DNA of 64,000 bases, taken from Vicugna vicugna. Its lineage: Eukaryota. Of the stretch, positions 6,290-57,045 are shown piece by piece. The stretch covers positions 4,944,066 through 5,008,065 of the forward strand of contig MU058221.1 in NCBI GenBank assembly GCA_013265495.1, written 5' to 3'. How positions within the stretch are numbered: the stretch's first letter is position 1; the number at the start of each line of letters is the position of its first letter. A model generated the notes under the pieces. It was not told where the DNA came from. It saw only the letters and a program-made list of their open reading frames with translations, and searched no databases. The translations under genes were made by a program, and so were the position numbers.

Positions 6290-7430
6290 GGGGTGACTTT
6301 TTAGTCAAGAGTGAAGGGAGCTGACTGTGTGGACACGTGGGAGGAAGAGCGTTCCAGGCACAGGGAGGGAAGAGCAAGTGCAAAGGTCCTCAGGCAGGAT
6401 GGCGATGGCTTGTTTGAGGAAGGGAGGGAGCCTGCGTGGCTCGAGCAGAGGACAGGTGCAAGCGGGTACAGTCAGGAGGGCAGCTGGGAGCCGGGCACAG
6501 AGGCTCTTTTTCCTCAAGACCCAGGTGAGAAGGGGAGTGTTGGAGGGTTTGAGCAGAGGGGTGATATGATCTGATCTAGGTTTTAACAGAGCTCTAGGGC
6601 CACTGTGATAAAAATAGACCAAGGCGGGGTGAGGGTAGGAAACTTGGAGTCAAGTTGGGGCGGAGGTCAATGTGGTTTGGATGGTGGAGAGGGAGAGTTG
6701 TTGGATCCTGGGTCCGTTTTGTTTGGTTTGGGGTTGGGGGGAGGTAATTAGGTTTATTGTTTATTTATTTGTTGCCTTTTTTTTTTTAATGGAGGTACTG
6801 GGGATTGAACCCAAGACCTCGTGCGTGCTAAGCACATGCTCTGCTACTGAGCTCTACCCTCCCCACCCCCTCACCCCGATCCGTTTTGAAGGGGAAGTGG
6901 CAGAATTTGCTGGTGGGGTATAAGAAGAAGAAAAGAGTCAGAAATACCTCCTGAGCAGCAGGAAGGAGGGAGGGAAGTGGTGCCGAAATGGGAAAGACTG
7001 TGAGGCGAGCGGATCTGGGGGGGATCACCAGGACCTGTTTGGGACATGCGGCATGGGAGCTGCGTTTAGGACATCCGGTGCGGTAGTGATGGGCAGTAGG
7101 GCAACTGATTTCAGGGAAGAGGTCTGGACTAAAGAGAGAGACCTTAGAGTCATGGGCTCGCGGGTGGTACCCAGACAGGAGATCCCTGCGGGATGAGGGC
7201 TGCGAAGAAGGAGGTGAAGGGCCGAGTCCTGACACCGCAGCTTTCAGAGATGGGAGAGAAGAGTAAGAACTGACGAAGGAGACTGAAAGGGGCAGAACCG
7301 GGAAGGTACAGGGTCCCTGAAGCCGAGGAAGAGAGTGTATGAAGGGGTCACCCGAGTCAGGTGCTGCTGAAGGGCCAAGTAAGGTGACGGGTGAGCTAAT
7401 GGGGGTCATTGCTGTCCTCAGAAGCGTGGT
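6290..7430 (-). mobile_element. Old LINE-2 relic, interrupted by a SINE
   Basis: Purine-rich L2-like motifs (gttccaggcacagggaggg...gcaagtgcaaaggtcct; gtgatatgatctgatcta); boundaries approximate. Confidence 0.6.
6722..6879 (-). mobile_element. tRNA-derived SINE, camelid Vic-1-like
   Basis: ggaggtactggggattgaacccaagacc...gctactgagct (reverse B and A boxes); TSD TCCGTTTTG at 6713-6721 and 6880-6888. Confidence 0.9.
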
Positions 7431-10079
7431 TGCCATGGAGCTGCCAAGACGGACATGGCATTCTGCTGGAGAGCAGGGCAGATTCCAGAGTGGGGAGTCG
7501 AGGCAGGTACTGGGCAAACGGGGCTCCTCTCCAATATCCTGGGCACGCCTGGCCCCTGAGGAGCCTCAGGAGAGCTCTCGGAATCCGTGCTGGACTCCTG
7601 ACCTGGGGAGGTTGGTGGAATCAGTGGGTTGATGTGATGTTGGGGGTTCCAGGGTGAAAAGGACCGAAGCTCCCTATGGCTCAAGAATGACTTCAGAGCA
7701 TGAGACCTAACGGGCTCCTTGGAGTCGAGGGCCTCCCCGCCAGGCCTCGGTCCCCATTGCTTCATCACCTTAGATGGAGTGAGGGGCTGAAGAGGCTGCC
7801 GGCTGTGCTCAGCACAAACAAGGAGCCCTGGGTGGGTGACTAGGAACCATGGTGGGGAGTCTTCGAGCTCCAGGATCAGGCCCAGGGCTTCTAAAACAAA
7901 CAACCAGCTGCTTGTGCCCTGAAAGGGGTTTGCTCAATGGACATGTTAGAGGGCAGCCTCGCCCCTCCTGGGCAGCGCGGCACAGGCTTCAGTTCTTGAG
8001 TGACGGGCCAGCCGTCCTTGCCACAGGAGGATCTCTGTCTGAGTGGCAGCCAAGTGTTCCTTCAGACCAGTGGCTCAGGGCGGGACCGTCCGCACTGCGG
8101 ACGCGATACGGTGGTGGTGTTTATGCTCCCACGAGCCGTGGAGGCTGGCTGGGCCCTGGGCTCCAGAGGTCGCGGAGCCGTCCAGGGAGCCGAAGTCACA
8201 TCAGGAAGAAACCTGATGACGGACAGCTCGACCCGAGTGAGTCGGGTGGAGTGTCAACTTCTGATTACGCGTGAGGTTCACAGGCCTAGAGGACCCTTAA
8301 GCTGCCCTCAGAGGACACACTTTTAAATCAGAACTGGATTTTGTTGCTTAATGAATTCTGAATGTGTTAAAATTTAAAAAGCTTGCTTAGGGGCCTGGGA
8401 GGGGGAAGTATGAGTGTCACATGCCTCTTACGACATTGAAGAAGGAAGCTTACCCCTGACACACCCAGCCCCGCCCACGGACGTCCCGCATTATAGCCCG
8501 TATGCCTGGGTTATTGGCTGATCGACACACTTAGGGACTCACATCCATTATCTCATTTGATCCTCAAAATAGTTCTAAGAATTAAGCGAAGCTGCTATAA
8601 TCGCTCCTATTTAATAGACATGAGCTGAGGCTTATCGAGGTGATGGATTTGCCCCTGGCAGGTCCGGCCTCTCAACCCAGGGCCCCCGATTTCCACATCT
8701 GGCCGTTGTCCCTGGCGGGACAGGGAGATGGGGAGGAAGCAGCCCCTCTGACAAGTGTACTCATGAATATTGCCACCGGCGTTTATTAATAACAGATGGG
8801 CCAAGGATTCCGCAGAGTCGCCGTCCTAAGGACTCCCACGCATTTAACTCTCAAGACATTTTTTTTTCTTATTTTGTAAAATCATGCCGTCTAGTCCTTA
8901 TCTGATAGGTGCACCCCAAAGGGTGCGTGAACCACGTCTGCCGAGTCGATGGGGTGACTGACAACCTTCCTTCCCTCTTGGCCATCGCAAAGGCCAGAGT
9001 GTTGCCCTGTGGCTGTGGTCCCCGTGGGTCCTGGCTCCCCATCATTCTCTGTAAAGTGTGGATGCCAGCCGCTTTCCGCGAGGTCTGTGCCGTGTGGGTG
9101 GGAGGATTTTGTAGCTTTTTCCCTCCTAACTGCAACGGTGACTTGATGATGCTCTTGCCAAGTTCTGCTTCTTTGCCCTACTGGGTTGGTGTCCTTCCAG
9201 GAGCCTCTTCTGTCTTTCTTCAGGTGTTTAATTAAGCAAGTCCACGTGCTACTCCATGTTCCTGGAGAAACTAACACAGTGAGCAAAGCTTCCCAGGACC
9301 TTGCTTCCTCCCAGGTGGCCAGGTTCCCACCCTGCCCGTTGTTACTGCAGTGTATCGTGTGACACATGTGTCCCGGTGCAGGTGGTGTGTTGTTACAGCA
9401 CGTGACTGCGATATAGCAGTATGGCTGCTGTTATTAACAGCCTCTTCCCCTACACACACGCGTTCCCTCCTATACATCCTATTTCAGAAGACTTACCTTC
9501 TTAAAGGCCCATGTACTTTACACTGAAATCAACTCGAGGAGACCAGAAAGCAGCAGCTAAGCTGGACCCTAGTCCTTAAGTCCCAGGGCCTTTTAAGAAG
9601 GTATCTCTCCCAATTTGACCTTTTTTTTCTTTCTCTCTTTCCTATGCCCAGGTGAATGAACTGCATCACATCTATTCAGATATTTTGTATTTAACTTACA
9701 AATCTTAAATGGAGTTTTTTTCTATTTGCACTGTTTCAGGATTCACAGAAAATCAAGTCCAGTCCAGCCTCCTCCTCAAGCAGCTTAATTTAAGTTTTAG
9801 GCAAAATCATGAGGGGTTGAAAATCGACTTTCAACCCAGAGCGTGTCCATGGGGAGGCTGTTGGTGAGTCCTGAGGCTCTGTGGAATTAAGCATTAGTGT
9901 GGCCGCCTGATTCTTTTCCTCTGTGGACTTGCAAATTAACATCTTCCGTGGCTGCCTCTGCCTGCGTACTTATATTCCAATCTCCAGATGCGTTGTTTGT
10001 TATTAAAGTCACCATGTTTGGGGGGGTGGGGGTGCAGTGACTGCCCCAGATGCGCTGACCTGCACTGTAACCAAACATG

Positions 10080-10570
10080 TTATTCAGACATACTGGAATA
10101 TATTCTTCCCCATCCTGGCTCGGCTCCGTCACTCCCTCCCTCCCTGGAGCCAGGGACTCCCCAGACTGGCAGGGAAGAGCAGGGCTGGGCAGGGACCTCT
10201 TTCAGAGGGGTCACGTCGAGGGCTCACACTGAGGCTGGGGTCAGGTGTAACAGAGGCAGGCGGGCAGTGCACACTCATTTTGTGCGGTCGGCCTGGGGAG
10301 CTGTCTGCATGTTCTAACAAGGGTGGAACTGCCTGTAACCGTGTATGTGAGTTCTCTAGAAGTCCTACAACTGTACAGGGGCCAGTTTCTACAGCTGCCA
10401 ATTCAGGCCCGTGGCCGAGGCTTCAGGAGAAGGGAGCGAGTGTTTCTCAGCTGAGAACCACTGGAAACCAGAGGCGCAGGCTGACCTGCGGAGAGGGGAG
10501 GGCCAGCCCAGGGCTCCCTGTGTCCCTGGGTGATCGTTCCCCACTTCGGTCCTTCCGTTGTGTTACGCTG
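10080..10570 (+). repeat. Left arm of a ~490-bp inverted repeat
   Basis: Reverse complement of ~13803-14295 by manual alignment; 10274-10493 is identical to the partner. Confidence 0.97.
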
Positions 10571-10571
10571 C

Positions 10572-10665
10572 CATGGGTCTGGAGTGGAGCCAGAGACTGC
10601 ATTTCTGACATCATCGCAAGTGGTACTGATGCTGCGGTCCGCGGAACACACTTTGAGTAGCAGGG
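10572..10665. mobile_element. MER5A-like fragment at the inner edge of the left inverted-repeat arm
   Basis: ggtctggagtggagcc...ctgcatttct...tgatgctgc...cacactttgagtagca. Confidence 0.65.
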
Positions 10666-13600
10666 AGCCACGTCAAAACGACCCGAGGCCGGAGGGTCAG
10701 GCCCCCAGAAGGCTGTTTCCGTCAGCCCTAGATTTTCCTAGCCTCTCCCCTTTAGCTCATACACATTTACATTTGTAGACAGAAAATAGTGAACATCTGA
10801 CAACATTTGTTTAATTGTGATTGTTGTGGGGCCCTTCGGGAGTTGGGGGAGAAGAGCGGCTCAGCCAAGCTGCCAGTCCCCACCCCAAAACCATCAAGAC
10901 TTAGCGTTGTGCCTGGATTTTTCCAAAAATGTGCATGATCGTGGCCGATCCACCCACTCTGGCCTTACGATAACAGAAACTGCTCCGCCAGAAGGGAGTG
11001 ATTGGTCCGGAATAAACCCACCCAGGGTGGCAGTCAGTTCTTTACTGCCCTGTTTAGAGCTGGCCTGAGGATTGACATTTCCTTGTACTGTCTCAAGTGA
11101 GAACTCTCCTGGGCTTCTTCCAGCAACCCGTGTCTCCTCCCAGACTCTGCAATCCTGTGGTCACTCCATAAATAGTTGTTGACTGGCTTGACTCATTCCC
11201 TGGGGGAAAAAAAAAAAAAAAAAAGCAGGAGGAAGTAGGGAAAAGGGGAGTGGGCTTGGTTTTCTGTCTCTCTTAAGTGTAAGGAGGAAAGGCCCAGCCT
11301 GCTGTCTGATTGTTTGCAGGATGTGGCTATTTCCATCATATGAAGTAGCATGAAGAAACGCAATTTTTGTTGTTCACGACCTGCAGTCTCTTTGGAGGCT
11401 TAAAGGCAGAAAGCAGTTCCCTCCAGAATTTCCAGCTGGGAAGCCCAGCAGGAGAACCAGCCGCCGCCACCGCCGCCCTGACTGCTTGGAAAACACGGCC
11501 CCTCGTCGTCCCGTGATGCTGTGGGCCCTGTTTCGTGTGCAGTTACCCTTGTGGGGGTGAGCAGAGACCTTCGGGTGTTTGCTCTGGTGACAGCCAGGTT
11601 CTCGATGCTTTTAAGGCCTGGGGTTTTCCCTCGCGGTTCAGCTGTGAGACTCTTGAGGATGTGTTTGTCCTCTCATGATTGCGTTCTGTGCCTCCTTCCA
11701 TTTCTCTCCTCCAGAAATGGAGGGGGTTTCCCTGGCTTGACAAAGGGAGAGAAGGGGGCTGTGTTCCAAGGGGCCTGTTGTAGGCAAACACCCCTCTTCT
11801 CAAGCTGGCCTGAACTGCCACTCCACTGCCTTTCCTGGGGTCTCTGGAACCTTCCTTACAGCTCACACGGATTTTGTCGCTTCCAAGAATGCTCTCTGGC
11901 CCTTCGCCTCCGTAAAATCATCTGCGTTGGGGTCTGAGCTCTGGTGGAGCATTGCTCTGGGGTTTTTTTTTGATTTGCACGTGGGCTACACCCAGGCCTT
12001 TCCATGGGTTGGTAGAAAATGCCTGGACTCCAGGAATGGGGAAGGGCCCCCAGTTTCCTTATCTGTGAAAAGGAGCTGGTAAGAAAATAGAGAGTCTGTA
12101 CGCGCAGTGTTGGCATGAGGGCTGAGTGAGTTTGCATCTGCAAAGACTTAGGGCGGTGCTAGACGCAGAGTGAGTTGACTGTTGTTTTTGTGTTTCTGTG
12201 TGGCATCCACATTGTGGGTTTTTTGGGTTTTTTTGTTTTTCCCTGTATCATGAGCTTATTCAGCTCAACTTTGGGCTCCAGGGTCGAATGTAGGAGATTG
12301 TCCGCTCAATAAATGCTTCTTTTAAATTAATGGTGGGGGAACGGGGCGCAAGCATGTTGTGCGAGGAGACACTTAACAGCCTGCCCTGGGGGTGGGGGGG
12401 TGCCCCGCTTTGGGGTGCTTGTCCTTTTCCATGGTGTAAAGGCTCCCACCCACAACCGATTTCAAACTCCCGGTGGGGCCACAGTGACCGCCGGGTTCAG
12501 AAGAGACGCTCATAAACCAGGACCAGCTGGCCCGACTGCACCGCTGGGAGGCTTCTGTGATGGAAACCACAAGGCTGCGGCCACCCCCGGCCTCCTCCCC
12601 CTACCCCGCTTAAGAATTGGTAATTTGGCCTTTTTAAAAAGCACTCAATAATAAGATCTTAAATACAGCCTAGGTTAAAAGTGGGATTTTAATAAGCCTG
12701 TGCAGCGCTGTATTACACCACTTTGTGTTGCGCATGTTGAACGCGCTCGGGTTGTGCTGTCCCCTCCAAAGGAAGCCCTGAGTGCAGGGAATGGGGCTCG
12801 TCTGGGGGACAGAGAGATGACCTTTAAAAGACCTTTCAGAGCCACTCAGAAAAGGGAAAGCAGAAACTAGAGGCCCTGGAGGATACTTAATGTTCTGTCT
12901 GAGCAGCAAAAGAAGGTGGTAAAGAAGTAATTAGCACGCTTCTGAACAGCAGCTAAGAGTCAGGGGCCAAATGCAGAGAACACGGCCTGAGGCCACCGTA
13001 GCAGGAGAGCGCCGCCACCAGCCCTGCGCGGCGGGGAAACAGATGTTAGCACCGAGGTCTTACTTTGTACTTAGGAGGTTTGTGTGGTTTATTTGTTTTG
13101 GGCTTGGGTCTAATTTAACAGTTTGGGAGTGGAAAGAAAAATTAAGCACTTTATCGTGCCGTCTGAATAATGTTTTGGAATAACCAAGAATAGGTTCGTG
13201 TAACGAGGGGGTAGGTCATTGCCCCGCGTAATGACCCGTATCTGGATAGTGTTATTGTCCAGAGTGATGACTGGCCCTCCTTCTCATCACACACAAAGAG
13301 AAGCCTTACGGGGAAGAAATAAAAAGCCTCGGCCTTCTATTGTACACAGTATATAGTGTAAACAGTGGGTGCTTAATACGTGTTTGTTTCAATAAAGGCT
13401 TTCTCTAGCAGCTGTGCTCAGCGCAGGGCGGGACCTGCCTGAGGTCTCGCTGCTCAGTCAGACCCAGGTCTCTGGCCCCGGCCTGATGCTGTGGACTTCT
13501 CTCAGTGCCTTGGAAGGGACCAGCTGGACATAAGAGCCAGTGGGGGAGAGGCCCTGACAACAGCTTCGTATTAGATGCCCGAGTTTTGTCTCTAGGGTCC

Positions 13601-13718
13601 CTCTGGCAAGTCTCTGCTTCTAGATTGTTCCCTGTGACTGATGTCTGTGTTGGCTTGCCCTTAAACTAGTGGACAGAGTGCACTTAAGAGAAATGTAGAA
13701 ACTTTCCTGCTGGAGATG

Positions 13719-13721
<3 letters not shown>

Positions 13722-13754
<33 letters not shown>
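13722..13754. repeat. (TG)16 microsatellite
   Basis: Perfect dinucleotide run about 50 bp inside the right inverted-repeat arm boundary. Confidence 0.97.
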
Positions 13755-13755
<1 letters not shown>

Positions 13756-13802
13756 GCAAGTGTGTTGCAGGGAGAGGGTAGTGACAGGAGGGCCAGAAGG
13801 CT

Positions 13803-14295
13803 ATAGTATAACATAACCAAAGGACTGAAGGGGGAATGATCACCCAGGGACACAGGGAGTCCTGGGCTGGCCCTCCCCCCTCCGCAGGTCAGCCTGCGCC
13901 TCTGGTTTCCAGTGGTTCTCAGCTGAGAAACACTCGCTCCCTTCTCCTGAAGCCTCGGCCACGGGCCTGAATTGGCAGCTGTAGAAACTGGCCCCTGTAC
14001 AGTTGTAGGACTTCTAGAGAACTCACATACACGGTTACAGGCAGTTCCACCCTTGTTAGAACATGCAGACAGCTCCCCAGGCCGACCGCACAAAATGAGC
14101 GTGCACTGCCCACCTGCCTCTGTTACACCTGACCCCAGCCTCAGTGTGAGTCCTCGACATGACCCCTCTGAAAGAGGTCCCTGCCCAGCCCTGCTCTTCC
14201 CTGCCAGTCTGGGGAGTCCCTGGCTCCAGGGAGGAAGGGAGTGATGGAGCAGAGCCAGGAGAGGGAAGAAAAAGGCCACGAGAGAGTATGTCTGT
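13803..14295 (-). repeat. Right arm of the ~490-bp inverted repeat
   Basis: Reverse complement of ~10080-10570; also visible as shared translations in ORFs 10129..10401(-) and 13972..14244(+). Confidence 0.97.
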
Positions 14296-17200
14296 AACAG
14301 AGCCCCTACTCCCCACAGCCCATTTTGAGGGGAGAGTTCCAGAAATGTCTGCACACGAACAGTGTCATCTGAATACACATGTGATTCCGAGCAGCCTGCA
14401 CCATGCGCTCCCCTAGGACCCTGGGCCCCACCCACCCGGCCCTGCCCCTACCCGTACGCACCAGCCGCAAGTACTCAGCTTTCCTTGGAGCTAATCCTGC
14501 CCCTCCTGAGGCCCAGAAGGGCAGGCTGAAACTTCTAGGCTGAATAGACGACAGCTCAAGCAAATGGAAGTGCTTACTGATGTGAAAACCTAAAAACTTC
14601 CATCTTTGTTGCCTACTATCGGAAATTAAGGCCAGGGTAACAGCGCAGCAGTTTCTCTGAAGGCCTAAAATTAGACCAACACCACCCCAAAAGAGATGGT
14701 CCGGTCCAACCAAAGTATGCCACAGCCTGGAAGAAGGTGGCCCCTGACCTTGTGACCCATTTATGTGAAAGCAAGGTCGTGTATAGCGACAGGCCACTGA
14801 GCAAGGCATTCTGAGCCTGCATCACACTGAATATAAACACTCCGCATCTGTGCTTTTGAAGCAGCAGCAGGCCTCTGAAACTGCAGGCGTGTGTGATTGC
14901 TTGTTGTGTGATGACATTATTGTTCAGTGTTTGATTTTTTTGAAAAATAGAGTGTTGGTGGTCATTTTCATGAAGTGTTTGGCACCAGATCAGGAGGTCC
15001 TGTTTTATGGTTTTTCCTAAGGACAGAAATATCACCTGCTTACGGTGGGAGGGAGGTCTGGTCTGCGCTGCCGCCAGACCCACCTGGTTACGGCGTCCGT
15101 GCGTAGTTCTGTGTTGGCCGGTTCTTGCCGGAAAATCAGTGCAGCAGCTACTGACCAGCTTCCTGCTGATCGCAAGCAAGCATTGGGTTGAGCATTGCAG
15201 GAAGGTCAAAGATGAGTAGGACCGTGACCTTGGACTTCCCACCTGCCCGTCTGGCAGGGCAACAAGACTAACAGCTGGACTGACATGGCAGAGAAAGGTC
15301 AGTGTGTTAAGAGAACAATGTGCTTTGGAGCCTCAGAGAAGGAGGGATGTTAGACCATCTCCCCCGGTCTAAAAAAAGTTCCCATCTTTAAATTACCATT
15401 ACAAGAGCTTACCTAGTCTAGACCCTATACTTGTTACGTATTAACTCAGTTCAGCCTCAGCACAACCTTATGAACTGAGTTATACCTTTTGAACAAGTGG
15501 GAACCGAGGGTAACTTTAGACCAAGGTAATACAATTCATGTGGGTGCAGTCGGGATTCAGCCCTGGCTCAGCCGGACCCTGCCACGGTCTGTGGCCTCGC
15601 AGCGGGGCCGAGAGGCAGCAAAAGTCCTGGGGTCTTTGGGACAATTTAGCCTGTAGAAGCTCCGGGCCGTATTGCTGTGTGGAGCCTGGCAGATGAGTGG
15701 TGGCCTGGAGCAGGTGGAAGGGCGGGGAGCCCAGCCGAGCCCTGGGCGGCCGGATGAGCCCTTTCTTTGAGGTAGCTCTTACATCATCTCGTTTGGGATA
15801 ATCATTTGTAGACTTGCTGCCGCTGCAGACCGTAAGCCCCGCTCAAATTTCCTCTGCGGCAATGACCGTGAAGTGGTTCCCTTTGCAGGACACAGGGGCC
15901 CAGGCAGCACTGCCTGAAAACACGGTTGTTTCAGTCTCAGGGGGGACGTCGGTGTGAGTTAGGGAGTCTTCTCAATTACAAAAACCTTTCTAAAGGAGCA
16001 CAGGTTTATTGCATCTGAGCTTCACCAGGAATTTCAACCAGAGTGGCAGAGAGCTCCCAGAGCAAGGGTCAGCGGCGCTCCCCCTGCATCTGGGGGCGTC
16101 GAGGTGGTTTCACAGCCTTTTGAGTAGCCCCCATTGCAGTCTTGTTTGCAATTAATTTGTACTATCTGTAAAGGAAGGGGATGCCCAGTCAAGGTAAACG
16201 CCACCACCCTGTCCCACACTAATGAGCTTCGCCTGTGTAAACCCCATTAATTGTGGCTGTTGGCTTTTTAATTGTCCTTAAATTTCTTGTACGTTAACTG
16301 CCCCGGGGCTGGAACTCTGGTTTCTGTTTCCGTTAGAGGCTCTCTTTCCATCCCAACCCCCAAAAGTCTCGCCAGTCTGCACCCCGCCCCCACCCACCCC
16401 CTGTCCCCTATTAGTGCTATGAGCAGAAGGAAGGTCAGAGAAATGGTCCCATTGGCCCAGACTAGGAGCCACGGGCGTGCGGGGAAAGGAGGTGCGGAAG
16501 CCAGATGGTTTTTTCATGAGGGCCCGGAACCTCAGGTCAAGAGAAGAGGGACTTGAGATTGTCACGGGGTCATCTCAGTGTGATGAAGGATTCCAGCAGG
16601 GCTGTGTGCAGCTGGGGCGGCCGCCTTAAGAAAAGGGCTCGAGCTGAGGCCAGGCAGCCTCTCCGTGCAGGGAGGGTGCAGCCTCCCGATGAACGATGGA
16701 CGGGACAGACTGAGTGCCCCTTGTACGCAAAGCGGGGTCCTTGGACAAGCATCTTTCAGGAGCTCGTTAGACATGCAGCATCTCAGGTCCCACCTCAGAC
16801 CTGTTGACCCAGGGTCTGCATTTAATGAGGTCCCAGGCCGATTCATAGGGACGGTGGCTCTGCTTTTTAGGACAGAACTGCACTGGAATCACCTGGAGGA
16901 GAATTTTGACATGCTAACACCAAGGCATTCATCCTGCAGCAGCAGCAGCTGCGAAGCCACTGGTCTGGGACGTGTAAGAGCCATTTCCACACCTGAGATT
17001 CTGGTTCTCTCGCCTTTCCCTCCCTCACCCGCTGCTGCTTTTCCAAGTCCACGCAAGTGTGCGCACCTGCACACGAGAGAGAAAGAAAATAGCATTGCGT
17101 GGAGTAATACCTACCCGTGATGTGGGTCAGGCTTGCAGAGAGAACGGGCCACTTTGCCTGGGAGCCTCGAGGCGGGGGCCAGAGTCACCTGCTGCCTGTT

Positions 17201-25729: not shown

Positions 25730-25845
25730 GGGGGCTGGGGGCAGAGCTCAGGGGCAGAGCATGTGTTTAGCATGCACAAGGTCCTGGGTCCAATCCCCAG
25801 CACTTCCATTTAAAAAAAAAAAAGGATAAAAAAAAATAAAATGAA
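25730..25845 (+). mobile_element. tRNA-derived SINE, Vic-1-like
   Basis: gagctcaggggcagagcatgtg...gtcctgggtccaatccccagcac followed by an A-rich tail. Confidence 0.85.
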
Positions 25846-30524: not shown

Positions 30525-30675
30525 GTTATTTTATTTTATTTTATTTTTTAATTTTGTGTAGGAGAGGTAATTAGGTTTACTTACTTGTTTTTAGAGGCGG
30601 TGCTGGGGATTGAACCCAGGGCCATGTGCATGCTAAGCACGCGCTCCACCACCTGAGCTATACCCTCCCCCACTT
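30525..30675 (-). mobile_element. tRNA-derived SINE, Vic-1-like
   Basis: gaggtaattaggtt...ggggattgaacccaggg...cctgagctataccc. Confidence 0.88.
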
Positions 30676-41182: not shown

Positions 41183-41266
41183 TACCTGCAGATGAAATGG
41201 CCCCTCCTCGATGTCCCCGCCAGCGCCACAGTCAAGGACACCAGATCGCCGTCCCCCGCACACTTG
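41183..41266 (+). CDS. TCF7L1: TCF7L1 coding exon 4 (84 nt), [28 protein letters not shown]
   Basis: Pyrimidine tract plus tgcag acceptor and TTG|gtaagt donor; peptide matches the TCF7L1/TCF7L2 exon-4 block; phase 0-0. Confidence 0.96.
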
Positions 41267-45269: not shown

Positions 45270-46200
45270 TGTATTTGGATATGAGTTTAAACTTCTAGAA
45301 AAATTGCAAGACTGATACAAGGAACTCCCATATACTCTTTATCCAGATTCAGAAAATTTGCCCCAGTCTTTGTCTCTCTCTCTCTCACTGTATGTGTGTA
45401 TATACACACACGTATATATGAGGGTTTTTTTTTTAACAATTTGTCAGTAAGTTGGAGACATTGTGACCCTATACCCCCAAATGCTTTAGATGTATTTCTT
45501 ATTTTTTTTTCTTTTTTTAATGGAAGTGCTGGGGATTGAACCTAGGGCTTCATGCATACTAAGCATGCGCTCTACTACTGAGCTATACCCTACCCCTCCA
45601 GATGTATTTCTTAAGATCAAAGGTAATATCTTACAATGACTGCAGTACAGGTATCAAAATCAATTATTATCTAAATCCACATATATGTTCCAATTTTGGT
45701 AATTGTCCCAGTAATGTCTGTTAAGCGGGGTGTGTTTCCTTGGCCCAGAGTGCAACCCAGGATCACACATTACATTTAGTTGTCATGTCCTTTAAGTCTC
45801 CTTTAGTCTCACGGACTTGCTCAGCCTTTGTCTTTTCCTGACCATGACATCTCTGGAGAAGCACAGACCAGCTGTTTTGTAGAATGTCCCTCAGTTTGGG
45901 TTTGTCCAAGGTTTCCTCGTGACTGATTTCGGGTGGTGTGTTTTTGGCAAGGACACCATCACACTGATGGGTCCCTCTCCCTGCATCACATCGGGGGACA
46001 GGCCTGCGATGTCCATTTGTCCCAGTGTCAGTGATGCTGGCTTCGATCATTTGGTTCAGGGGGTGTCTGACGTGTTTCCTCTGAAGTTACTCCTTCCCTT
46101 TGTAAGTAATCAGCGCTCTGTAGGGAGAGGCTTTGAAGCTACGTAAATGCCCAGTTTCTCATCAGACTTTCGCGCACTCTCCATGGCAGGCATTGACGAT
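45270..46200 (-). mobile_element. Old L1M-type 3'UTR relic containing a SINE
   Basis: agaaaaattgcaag...gaactcccatatac and ccagctgttttgtagaatgtccctcagtttgggtttgtc resemble L1MC/MD 3' ends. Confidence 0.65.
45502..45599 (-). mobile_element. tRNA-derived SINE, Vic-1-like short form
   Basis: Perfect 14-bp TSD AGATGTATTTCTTA at 45488-45501 and 45600-45613. Confidence 0.92.
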
Positions 46201-51633: not shown

Positions 51634-51766
51634 TCGAATAAAGTTCCTGTTGTTCAGCACCCGCATCACATGCACCCGTTGACACCTCTCATCACCTACA
51701 GCAATGACCACTTCTCCCCCGGCTCCCCTCCCGCACACCTGTCCCCAGAGATCGATCCAAAGACAG
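51634..51766 (+). CDS. TCF7L1: TCF7L1 coding exon 5 (133 nt), [44 protein letters not shown]
   Basis: ttccag acceptor and CAG|gtgagt donor; conserved TCF/LEF context-dependent (Groucho/TLE-interacting) region. Confidence 0.97.
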
Positions 51767-54047: not shown

Positions 54048-54739
54048 GTGAGTCCCGGGCAGCCGGGATGGGGGTGAGGGGTGAGGGGGAATTCAGCAGG
54101 GGGCCCGGCAGCCTCCCTCGGCCGCATCCTCTCCCTTGGGACTTGTTCCCTTTGACCCTCGGGGTTCCCCTCCTCTGAGACACCGCACAGCCTTTCTCAT
54201 GTTAAGGAATGTTTTACGATCAGGATTTTGAGACTGAAAGGGAACCTGAGGGAGTGTGTAGCTTCCTCCCCTCCACCCCCCATATACTTGACAGCTGCAA
54301 GGCCCAGAAAGGAACAGTTTCCCAGGGCCGTGTGGATGACCAGTGGCAGAGCCGAGACCAGCACTGAGGCCGTGCTTTGTCCACTATGCCATGAGACGGC
54401 AGGAGAGCCAAAGTCAGTGCCTCGTGGCCAAGGAGACCCCCGTCTTGTTTCTGCCTGAAGTGCCCTGCCCCCTTCCTCCTCCCCACCTGGGGCCGGTGCA
54501 TCCCAGATCTCACCACCCCGTTCTCCTTTGTCAGGAGATTGTCTTTTCCTAGAATGAGGCCTGAGGTCAGTCAGAGGCTGGGAACCGGATCCTCAGGCCC
54601 TGAAATCTCGGGGCCACCTGAATCGCATCCAAGCGGCTCATCTCCCTCCCCCTGCCCCCAGCCATCCCCTCCGCCTCCGTGGAAGGTGCCGGAAGGTGCC
54701 GGCCAACCCATGCTAACCCCCAGCCTTGTGACTTCCCAG

Positions 54740-54899
54740 GAAATCGCCAGTCCCAGTGAAAAAAGAGGAAGAAAAGAAACCCCACGTGAAGAAGCCTCTT
54801 AATGCCTTCATGTTGTACATGAAGGAGATGAGGGCCAAGGTGGTGGCCGAGTGCACCCTGAAGGAGAGTGCGGCCATCAACCAGATCCTGGGGAGAAAG
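54740..54899 (+). CDS. TCF7L1: TCF7L1 coding exon 9 (160 nt), N-terminal half of the HMG box
   Basis: cccag acceptor and AAG|gtaaag donor; encodes [42 protein letters not shown]. Confidence 0.98.
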
Positions 54900-56901: not shown

Positions 56902-57045
56902 CTTTTTTTGGTGGGGTGGTGCAGCAGGGTAATTAAGTTTATTTATTTTTTAATGAAGGGACTGGGGATTGAACCCAGGACCTTGTGAATGCTAAGCGTG
57001 CACTCTACCACTGAGCTGTCCCCTCCTCCTCGCCCCCACCTCACC
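56902..57045 (-). mobile_element. tRNA-derived SINE, Vic-1-like, in intron 11
   Basis: actggggattgaacccaggaccttg...ctctaccactgagct. Confidence 0.88.

Follow-up and report, generated by a model that had tools for sequence, protein, structure and literature searches.

An intronic inverted repeat of the vicuña with an identical centre and decayed ends, consistent with an old duplication kept alike by gene conversion

Two copies of a sequence facing each other across an intron may be alike through recent copying or through repeated overwriting of one copy by the other. Which of these applies, and can the segment between the copies flip? The question is raised by an inverted repeat in a 64,000-nucleotide stretch of Vicugna vicugna DNA (assembly GCA_013265495.1, contig MU058221.1, positions 4,944,066 to 5,008,065 of the forward strand; the window), where two opposed arms lie in an intron of a TCF/LEF gene. 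The evidence supports a local inverted duplication of old date, with a centre that was probably homogenised by gene conversion, as had been proposed from the letters of the window in an initial annotation: the divergence gradient along the arms is non-random, the core diverges from other animals at the rate of its flank, and a model without conversion did not produce the pattern in any of its runs.

Divergence along the two arms

The window was compared with itself using blastn. The arm pair was the top self-match, with 10103-10565 aligned to 14270-13809 over 463 columns at 96.3% identity and with 17 differences (16 substitutions and one 1-nt indel). The parts of the repeat are as follows.

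Left arm: 10103..10565, + strand, from self-blastn; possibly the later copy.
Right arm: 13809..14270, - strand, from self-blastn; at an old orthologous position, its outer flank being joined to it in two distant animal groups.
Identical core, left copy: 10274..10493, + strand, 0 differences in 220 nt.
Identical core, right copy: 13880..14099, - strand, pairing with 10274..10493.
Decayed outer remnant of the duplication: 10078..10094, + strand, pairing with 14285-14299 (P 0.0145).
Partner of the outer remnant: 14285..14299, - strand, from local alignment with 10078-10094.
Decayed inner edge: 10538..10569, + strand, 24/32 identical to 13805-13836.

Read inwards from the outer edge, the differences number 5 in 36 positions, 4 in 135, none in 220, 2 in 42 and, at the inner edge, 6 in 30. 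The edges together carry 11 differences in 66 bases (17%; the two ends are 14-20% different) and are distinct from the centre (Fisher P 1e-4). Under uniform placement of the 17 differences over the whole alignment, an identical run of at least 220 positions has a probability of 0.0002, which tenfold weighting of CpGs changes little; after trimming, it is 0.003 for 10113-10554 and 0.03 for 10129-10535. The gradient is real, but its signal comes from roughly 35 bases on either side. Five of the 11 edge differences are at CpGs, which fits slow decay. A toy model without conversion, run 20,000 times for each of five divergence settings, never gave the pattern; with conversion, it appeared in 16 of 24 settings, at best in 55 of 2,000 runs.

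Edge homology was assessed by local alignment, which replaced an anchored-extension test. The outer anchor (10078-10094 with 14299-14285) agrees at 15 positions, with a gap of 2 nt, and was equalled by 1.45% of 2,000 random window pairs, and the score of the inner edge (10538-10569 with 13836-13805, 24 of 32 matching) was equalled by none of 2,000. Six other flank comparisons gave no homology further out (P 0.06-0.66), and a possible inner anchor at 10638-10653 was borderline (P 0.059) and was left uncounted. The manual alignment behind the initial annotation is reproduced by these results: it had described two arms of about 490 bp in opposite orientation, 5 mismatches in 10103-10152, another 5 in 10141-10512 (placed here at 10214, 10222, 10261, 10273 and 10494), three of which (10214, 10261 and 10273) are CpG transitions, an unbroken 220-bp identical tract, and decayed edges with an outer anchor near 10085.

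Contigs of 20 public runs from 8 studies contain 0.85-0.92 of 736 words taken from 8500-16000, with 4 runs at a share of 0.00 set aside. The region is therefore real, a result that says nothing on the core. Within the core, an imperfect palindrome of 24 nt (22/24) lies at 10439-10462, with its copy at 13911-13934; it may represent two abutting terminal repeats of the hAT/MER5 type, which it resembles. Stop-free frames extend over both arms, with 217 codons at 10007-10660 (+) and 275 codons at 13620-14447 (-). A coding role for these 217- and 275-residue frames was rejected: the window holds 7 frames of at least 200 residues, no Pfam match was found, and the homologues shift frame.

Comparison with other animals

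The query was an open frame that lies by chance over the left arm, and spurious public gene calls served as a proxy for the DNA of other animals. A phmmer search of 1.84 billion proteins gave 5 matches, of which P0001, P0005 and P0007 were retained, while P0006 and P0008 were discarded as repeat-protein noise. The comparison was made by frameshift-aware alignment. P0001/P0003 and P0005 begin in the outer flank of the right arm (at 14404 and 14368) and continue through the arm, so the junction between the right arm and its flank is old. Right flank and arm are joined in two animal groups, and the arm alone was found in a third. These unbroken calls, which run from unique flank through the arm, hint that the animals concerned lack a second near-identical arm, judging from the way such contigs break.

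Codon matches between the core and the outgroup frames were 49/69, 53/69, 44/70, 32/52, 30/50 and 28/50, and simulation places the nucleotide divergence of the core from three more distant animal groups at about 12-22%. In the right flank, the matches were 23/35, 20/36 and 12/15. The core is no better conserved against the outgroups than the flank and diverges at a flank-like rate, so selection on the sequence does not explain the lack of arm-to-arm differences in 220 positions. Strong constraint on the core is lacking, and with no difference there, against 11 in 66 at the edges and about 12-22% to the outgroups, the arms are more alike than their age and constraint allow.

The polarity of 12 arm differences was read from the same alignments. 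Five are changes in the right arm and three in the left, which indicates that both arms mutate; two beside a gap (10122 and 10128) are ambiguous, and two (10111 and 10112) are uncovered. The edges differ by about as much as the nearest outgroup does, an indication that the duplication and the split from that outgroup are of similar age. Dating of the arms by an assumed rate was dropped as too loose.

No outgroup match joined the arm to the left flank in protein searches that are weak. Two protein candidates for the left-flank junction were seen and neither passed, and none was found among proteins of 30-38 residues, a range too narrow for meaning. The left arm may therefore be the later copy. 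A 27-base core pattern had 0 matches in metagenome and viral contigs, and a DNA alignment scan gave 132 pattern matches, none of which was confirmed. P0005 and P0009 fall in one cluster and differ by a few residues plus start and stop; they possibly come from related species, or from a second arm in one species.

Origin of the repeat and orientation of the spacer

The reading that we consider probable, though not strongly so, is an ancient local duplication in inverted orientation, in which gene conversion from arm to arm has repeatedly overwritten the centre, with a flip of the spacer possible. Some 490 bp of ordinary intron would have been copied, in inverted orientation, to a site 3.2 kb upstream, perhaps by template switching, the usual route for such copying, at a time roughly as old as the nearest-outgroup split. 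The nearby arms would then pair during break repair, and, conversion tracts needing homology on both sides, the centre would be covered and the ends spared. A crossover in the core would flip the 3.2-kb spacer; the spacer would stand in its ancestral orientation and the structure would be neutral. Conversion tracts measure 50 to several hundred bp (PMC3924818), and in human long-read data no inversion class is commoner than inverted duplications, with a median of 284 bp and mostly replicative-type junctions (bioRxiv 10.1101/2024.04.18.590093). The old, homogenised duplication is supported by the non-random gradient, the flank-like rate of the core and the 0 of 20,000 runs without conversion, taken together.

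The orientation of the spacer was judged from strand composition.

Spacer: 10571..13802, 3,232 nt, unstranded; a core crossover would turn it round, and its G+T skew is that of the host intron's sense strand.

Its G+T skew is +0.081, with the halves alike, and 10 other intron windows have +0.045 +/- 0.042; against these 10 windows, z is +0.9 as assembled and would be -3.0 if flipped. Skew of this kind is linked to transcription. Because the spacer carries the skew of the sense strand, its orientation as assembled is probably the ancestral one.

The spacer is possibly an invertible cassette; the assembly shows it in one orientation, and an inverted allele was not observed. The initial annotation had gone further on the same origin, suggesting that the spacer may be a present-day polymorphism of recurrent inversion, and this fuller claim we regard as doubtful. 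The geometry fits, and conversion implies the same pairing intermediate. For close repeats, non-allelic homologous recombination (NAHR) can use less than 50 bp of identity, as at alpha-globin (PMC2583991), and mixed haplotypes are seen in 21 of 24 human NAHR inversions, HsInv0030, whose most-identical area is only 559 bp, being outside the three single-origin cases (PMC6748972). Against recurrence stand the ancestral orientation indicated by the skew and an estimated meiotic minimal efficient processing segment of 300-500 bp; efficient mitotic recombination drops between 232 and 134 bp of identity, which places the 220 uninterrupted nucleotides of the arms at its edge (PMC2583991). The arms are also shorter than the repeats of all 24 human NAHR inversions surveyed, which run from 654 bp up in a comparison based on 20 table rows for repeat sizes, and the two closest human analogues, HsInv0040 and HsInv0061, are of single origin (PMC6748972). 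To call recurrent inversion by such repeats established was thus an overstatement at this size. Skew, borderline tract and short arms weigh against frequent flipping; a minor inverted allele is compatible with the skew.

A young duplication of about 3.7% divergence, with edge errors associated with its junctions and a core left clean by chance in place of conversion, is unlikely. The probability of the clean run for the interior alone, given below, speaks for it, as do the absence of the left arm from every outgroup match and the frequency of inverted duplications among human inversions (bioRxiv 10.1101/2024.04.18.590093). It has against it the whole-alignment P of 2e-4, the empty runs of the no-conversion model, a gapped remnant past the outer edge, and decay at both ends, largely at CpGs. 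An assembly or polishing artefact, in which one consensus was written for both copies of a real repeat, was judged a real risk for yeast repeats (PMC9731477); here it is very improbable. Four differences (10214-10273) were kept, a 75-bp identical tract away from unique flank, and a collapse would presumably have removed them as well, which speaks against the artefact. Selection might instead keep the arms alike, either for a long duplex in the pre-mRNA or for a pair of matching enhancers. The host gene regulates development, and the arms share one intron, whose transcript would form a duplex of about 460 bp with a predicted energy of -1035 kcal/mol. Changes that preserve G.U pairs showed no strand bias of the kind expected of a selected hairpin or editing duplex (6 transitions in the sense and 7 in the antisense reading), the core is unconstrained against the outgroups, and the arms matched neither Rfam at E<=1 nor, in 11 frames, Pfam and contained no TCF/LEF motif. 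Selection is a very improbable explanation. As to a possible pair of transposon copies, no third copy was found in the 64-kb window (blastn at word size 7, nhmmer), no direct repeat of at least 6 nt was found flanking the arms, and the orthologous position is old. Farthest from what we would expect is that the arms predate several splits between mammalian orders, were kept competent for recombination, and form an unusually small flip-flop cassette that moves TCF7L1 intronic enhancers and is segregating in camelids; this is very unlikely.

Several points weigh against the old duplication with a converted centre. The locus is selected for its striking look, and for the interior 10139-10512 the probability of the 220-nt run rises to 0.07, short of significance. 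In the toy model, edge protection is built in, and 8 of the 24 conversion settings gave zero. The anchored-extension test, which handles gaps poorly, showed nothing significant past either end of the arms (P 0.09 on the outer side, 0.63 on the inner). The outgroup comparison is at protein level only, and the searches for the left-flank junction are weak, as noted above. The right arm has an anti-sense skew (-0.087, P 0.07) despite its old orthologous junction. This would fit the left arm as the original, with both arms perhaps ancient. Finally, G/C stands on the left arm in 12 of 15 strong/weak differences (12:3, P 0.035, post hoc); weak GC-biased conversion is a possible source, and constraint on the left arm alone was considered and is weakened by the mixed polarity of the changes (5 versus 3). 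The left arm has 16 CpGs and the right arm 10.

Host gene, neighbouring features and comparable systems

The host gene lies on the + strand and belongs to the TCF/LEF family, as identified by the Pfam domains CTNNB1_binding and HMG_box. The features found for it and near the repeat are as follows.

First host exon found in the window: 41183..41266 (bounds approximate), + strand, putative, from a peptide motif; no Pfam match alone.
Host exon with CTNNB1_binding: 51634..51765, + strand, Pfam E 9.5e-20.
Host frame that includes the HMG box start: 54732..54899, + strand, Pfam HMG_box E 2.4e-10.
(TG)16 microsatellite: 13722..13754, + strand, about 55 nt inside the right arm.
Copies of a tRNA-derived short interspersed element (SINE): 6790-6861, 25737-25808, 30595-30667, 45521-45590 and 56954-57025, matched by Rfam tRNA.

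The exon at 41183..41266 lies downstream of the right arm by about 27 kb; of host exons 1-3, none was found in the window. The placement of the repeat in TCF7L1 intron 3 by the initial annotation stands in part: the TCF/LEF family is confirmed by Pfam, whereas the gene name and the intron number, which we assume here, are tentative readings of peptide motifs and of the order of the exons. The arms contained no exon or RNA family that could be found, the spacer being covered by window-wide motif and Rfam scans only, and motif, Rfam and Pfam scans gave no effect on the host gene and no function of the arms. The (TG)16 tract could be a break-prone site or could be there by chance. A stretch at about 12050-12160 in the spacer may be a MIR remnant, going by its likeness to the consensus. 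The five Rfam tRNA matches match one another and are copies of one SINE, probably of a camelid type, not tRNA genes. Some 500 bp upstream of the left arm, at 9489-9608, lies a short inverted pair with 25-nt arms, 80% complementary and 70 nt apart.

The structure is of a known kind, and the locus itself is newly described. No report of it was found in the open-licence literature, while a listing in inversion catalogues is still possible in bioRxiv supplements and subscription papers; TCF7L1 is absent from the 12 of 18 supplement files of PMC6748972 that were searched. The locus offers a clean single-locus picture of conversion holding the centre of a short repeat while its ends decay, near the lower size limit expected. 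Should the spacer occur both ways round, a Wnt-pathway gene in domestic camelids would harbour a hidden structural variant, missed by short reads, and the repeat would be a data point on the shortest length still able to invert.

Among known systems, the staggered-break duplications are alike in that non-repetitive sequence is duplicated in inverted orientation around a segment (Ranz 2007, PMC1885836). By that route the spacer ends up reversed with respect to its ancestral state, and the vicuña skew (z +0.9 assembled, -3.0 flipped) taken alone opposes this, unless the spacer was flipped back. The flip/flop region of Saccharomyces chromosome XIV resembles the vicuña repeat in that continual homogenisation of inverted repeats keeps re-inversion possible; its arms are 4 kb long and gene-bearing, and it was demonstrated by arm trees and both orientations (PMC9731477), whereas the vicuña repeat is known from one assembly. 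FLNA-EMD (HsInv0389) likewise has inverted arms around a spacer that recombination can flip, with 11.3-kb arms, genes in the spacer and repeats in 15 further mammals (PMC3961182, PMC8327919); the vicuña has 0.46-kb arms, no gene was found in its spacer, and its second arm was unseen in outgroups by weak searches. Nearest in scale are HsInv0040 and HsInv0061, whose inverted arms, below a kilobase in length (755/756 and 654/656 bp) and more than 90% identical, enclose segments of 3.6 and 1.7 kb (Giner-Delgado 2019, PMC6748972). The vicuña arms, at the two ends of their segment, also exceed that level of identity (96.3% over 463 nt). Introns hold 8 of that set's 45 inversions. The two human cases differ in being genotyped polymorphisms, while the vicuña arms are shorter (463 bp, 220 identical), lie at another locus and have no known inverted allele. 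By analogy, the vicuña repeat would work like a substrate of the HsInv0040 type, as FLNA-EMD and the yeast flip/flop in miniature.

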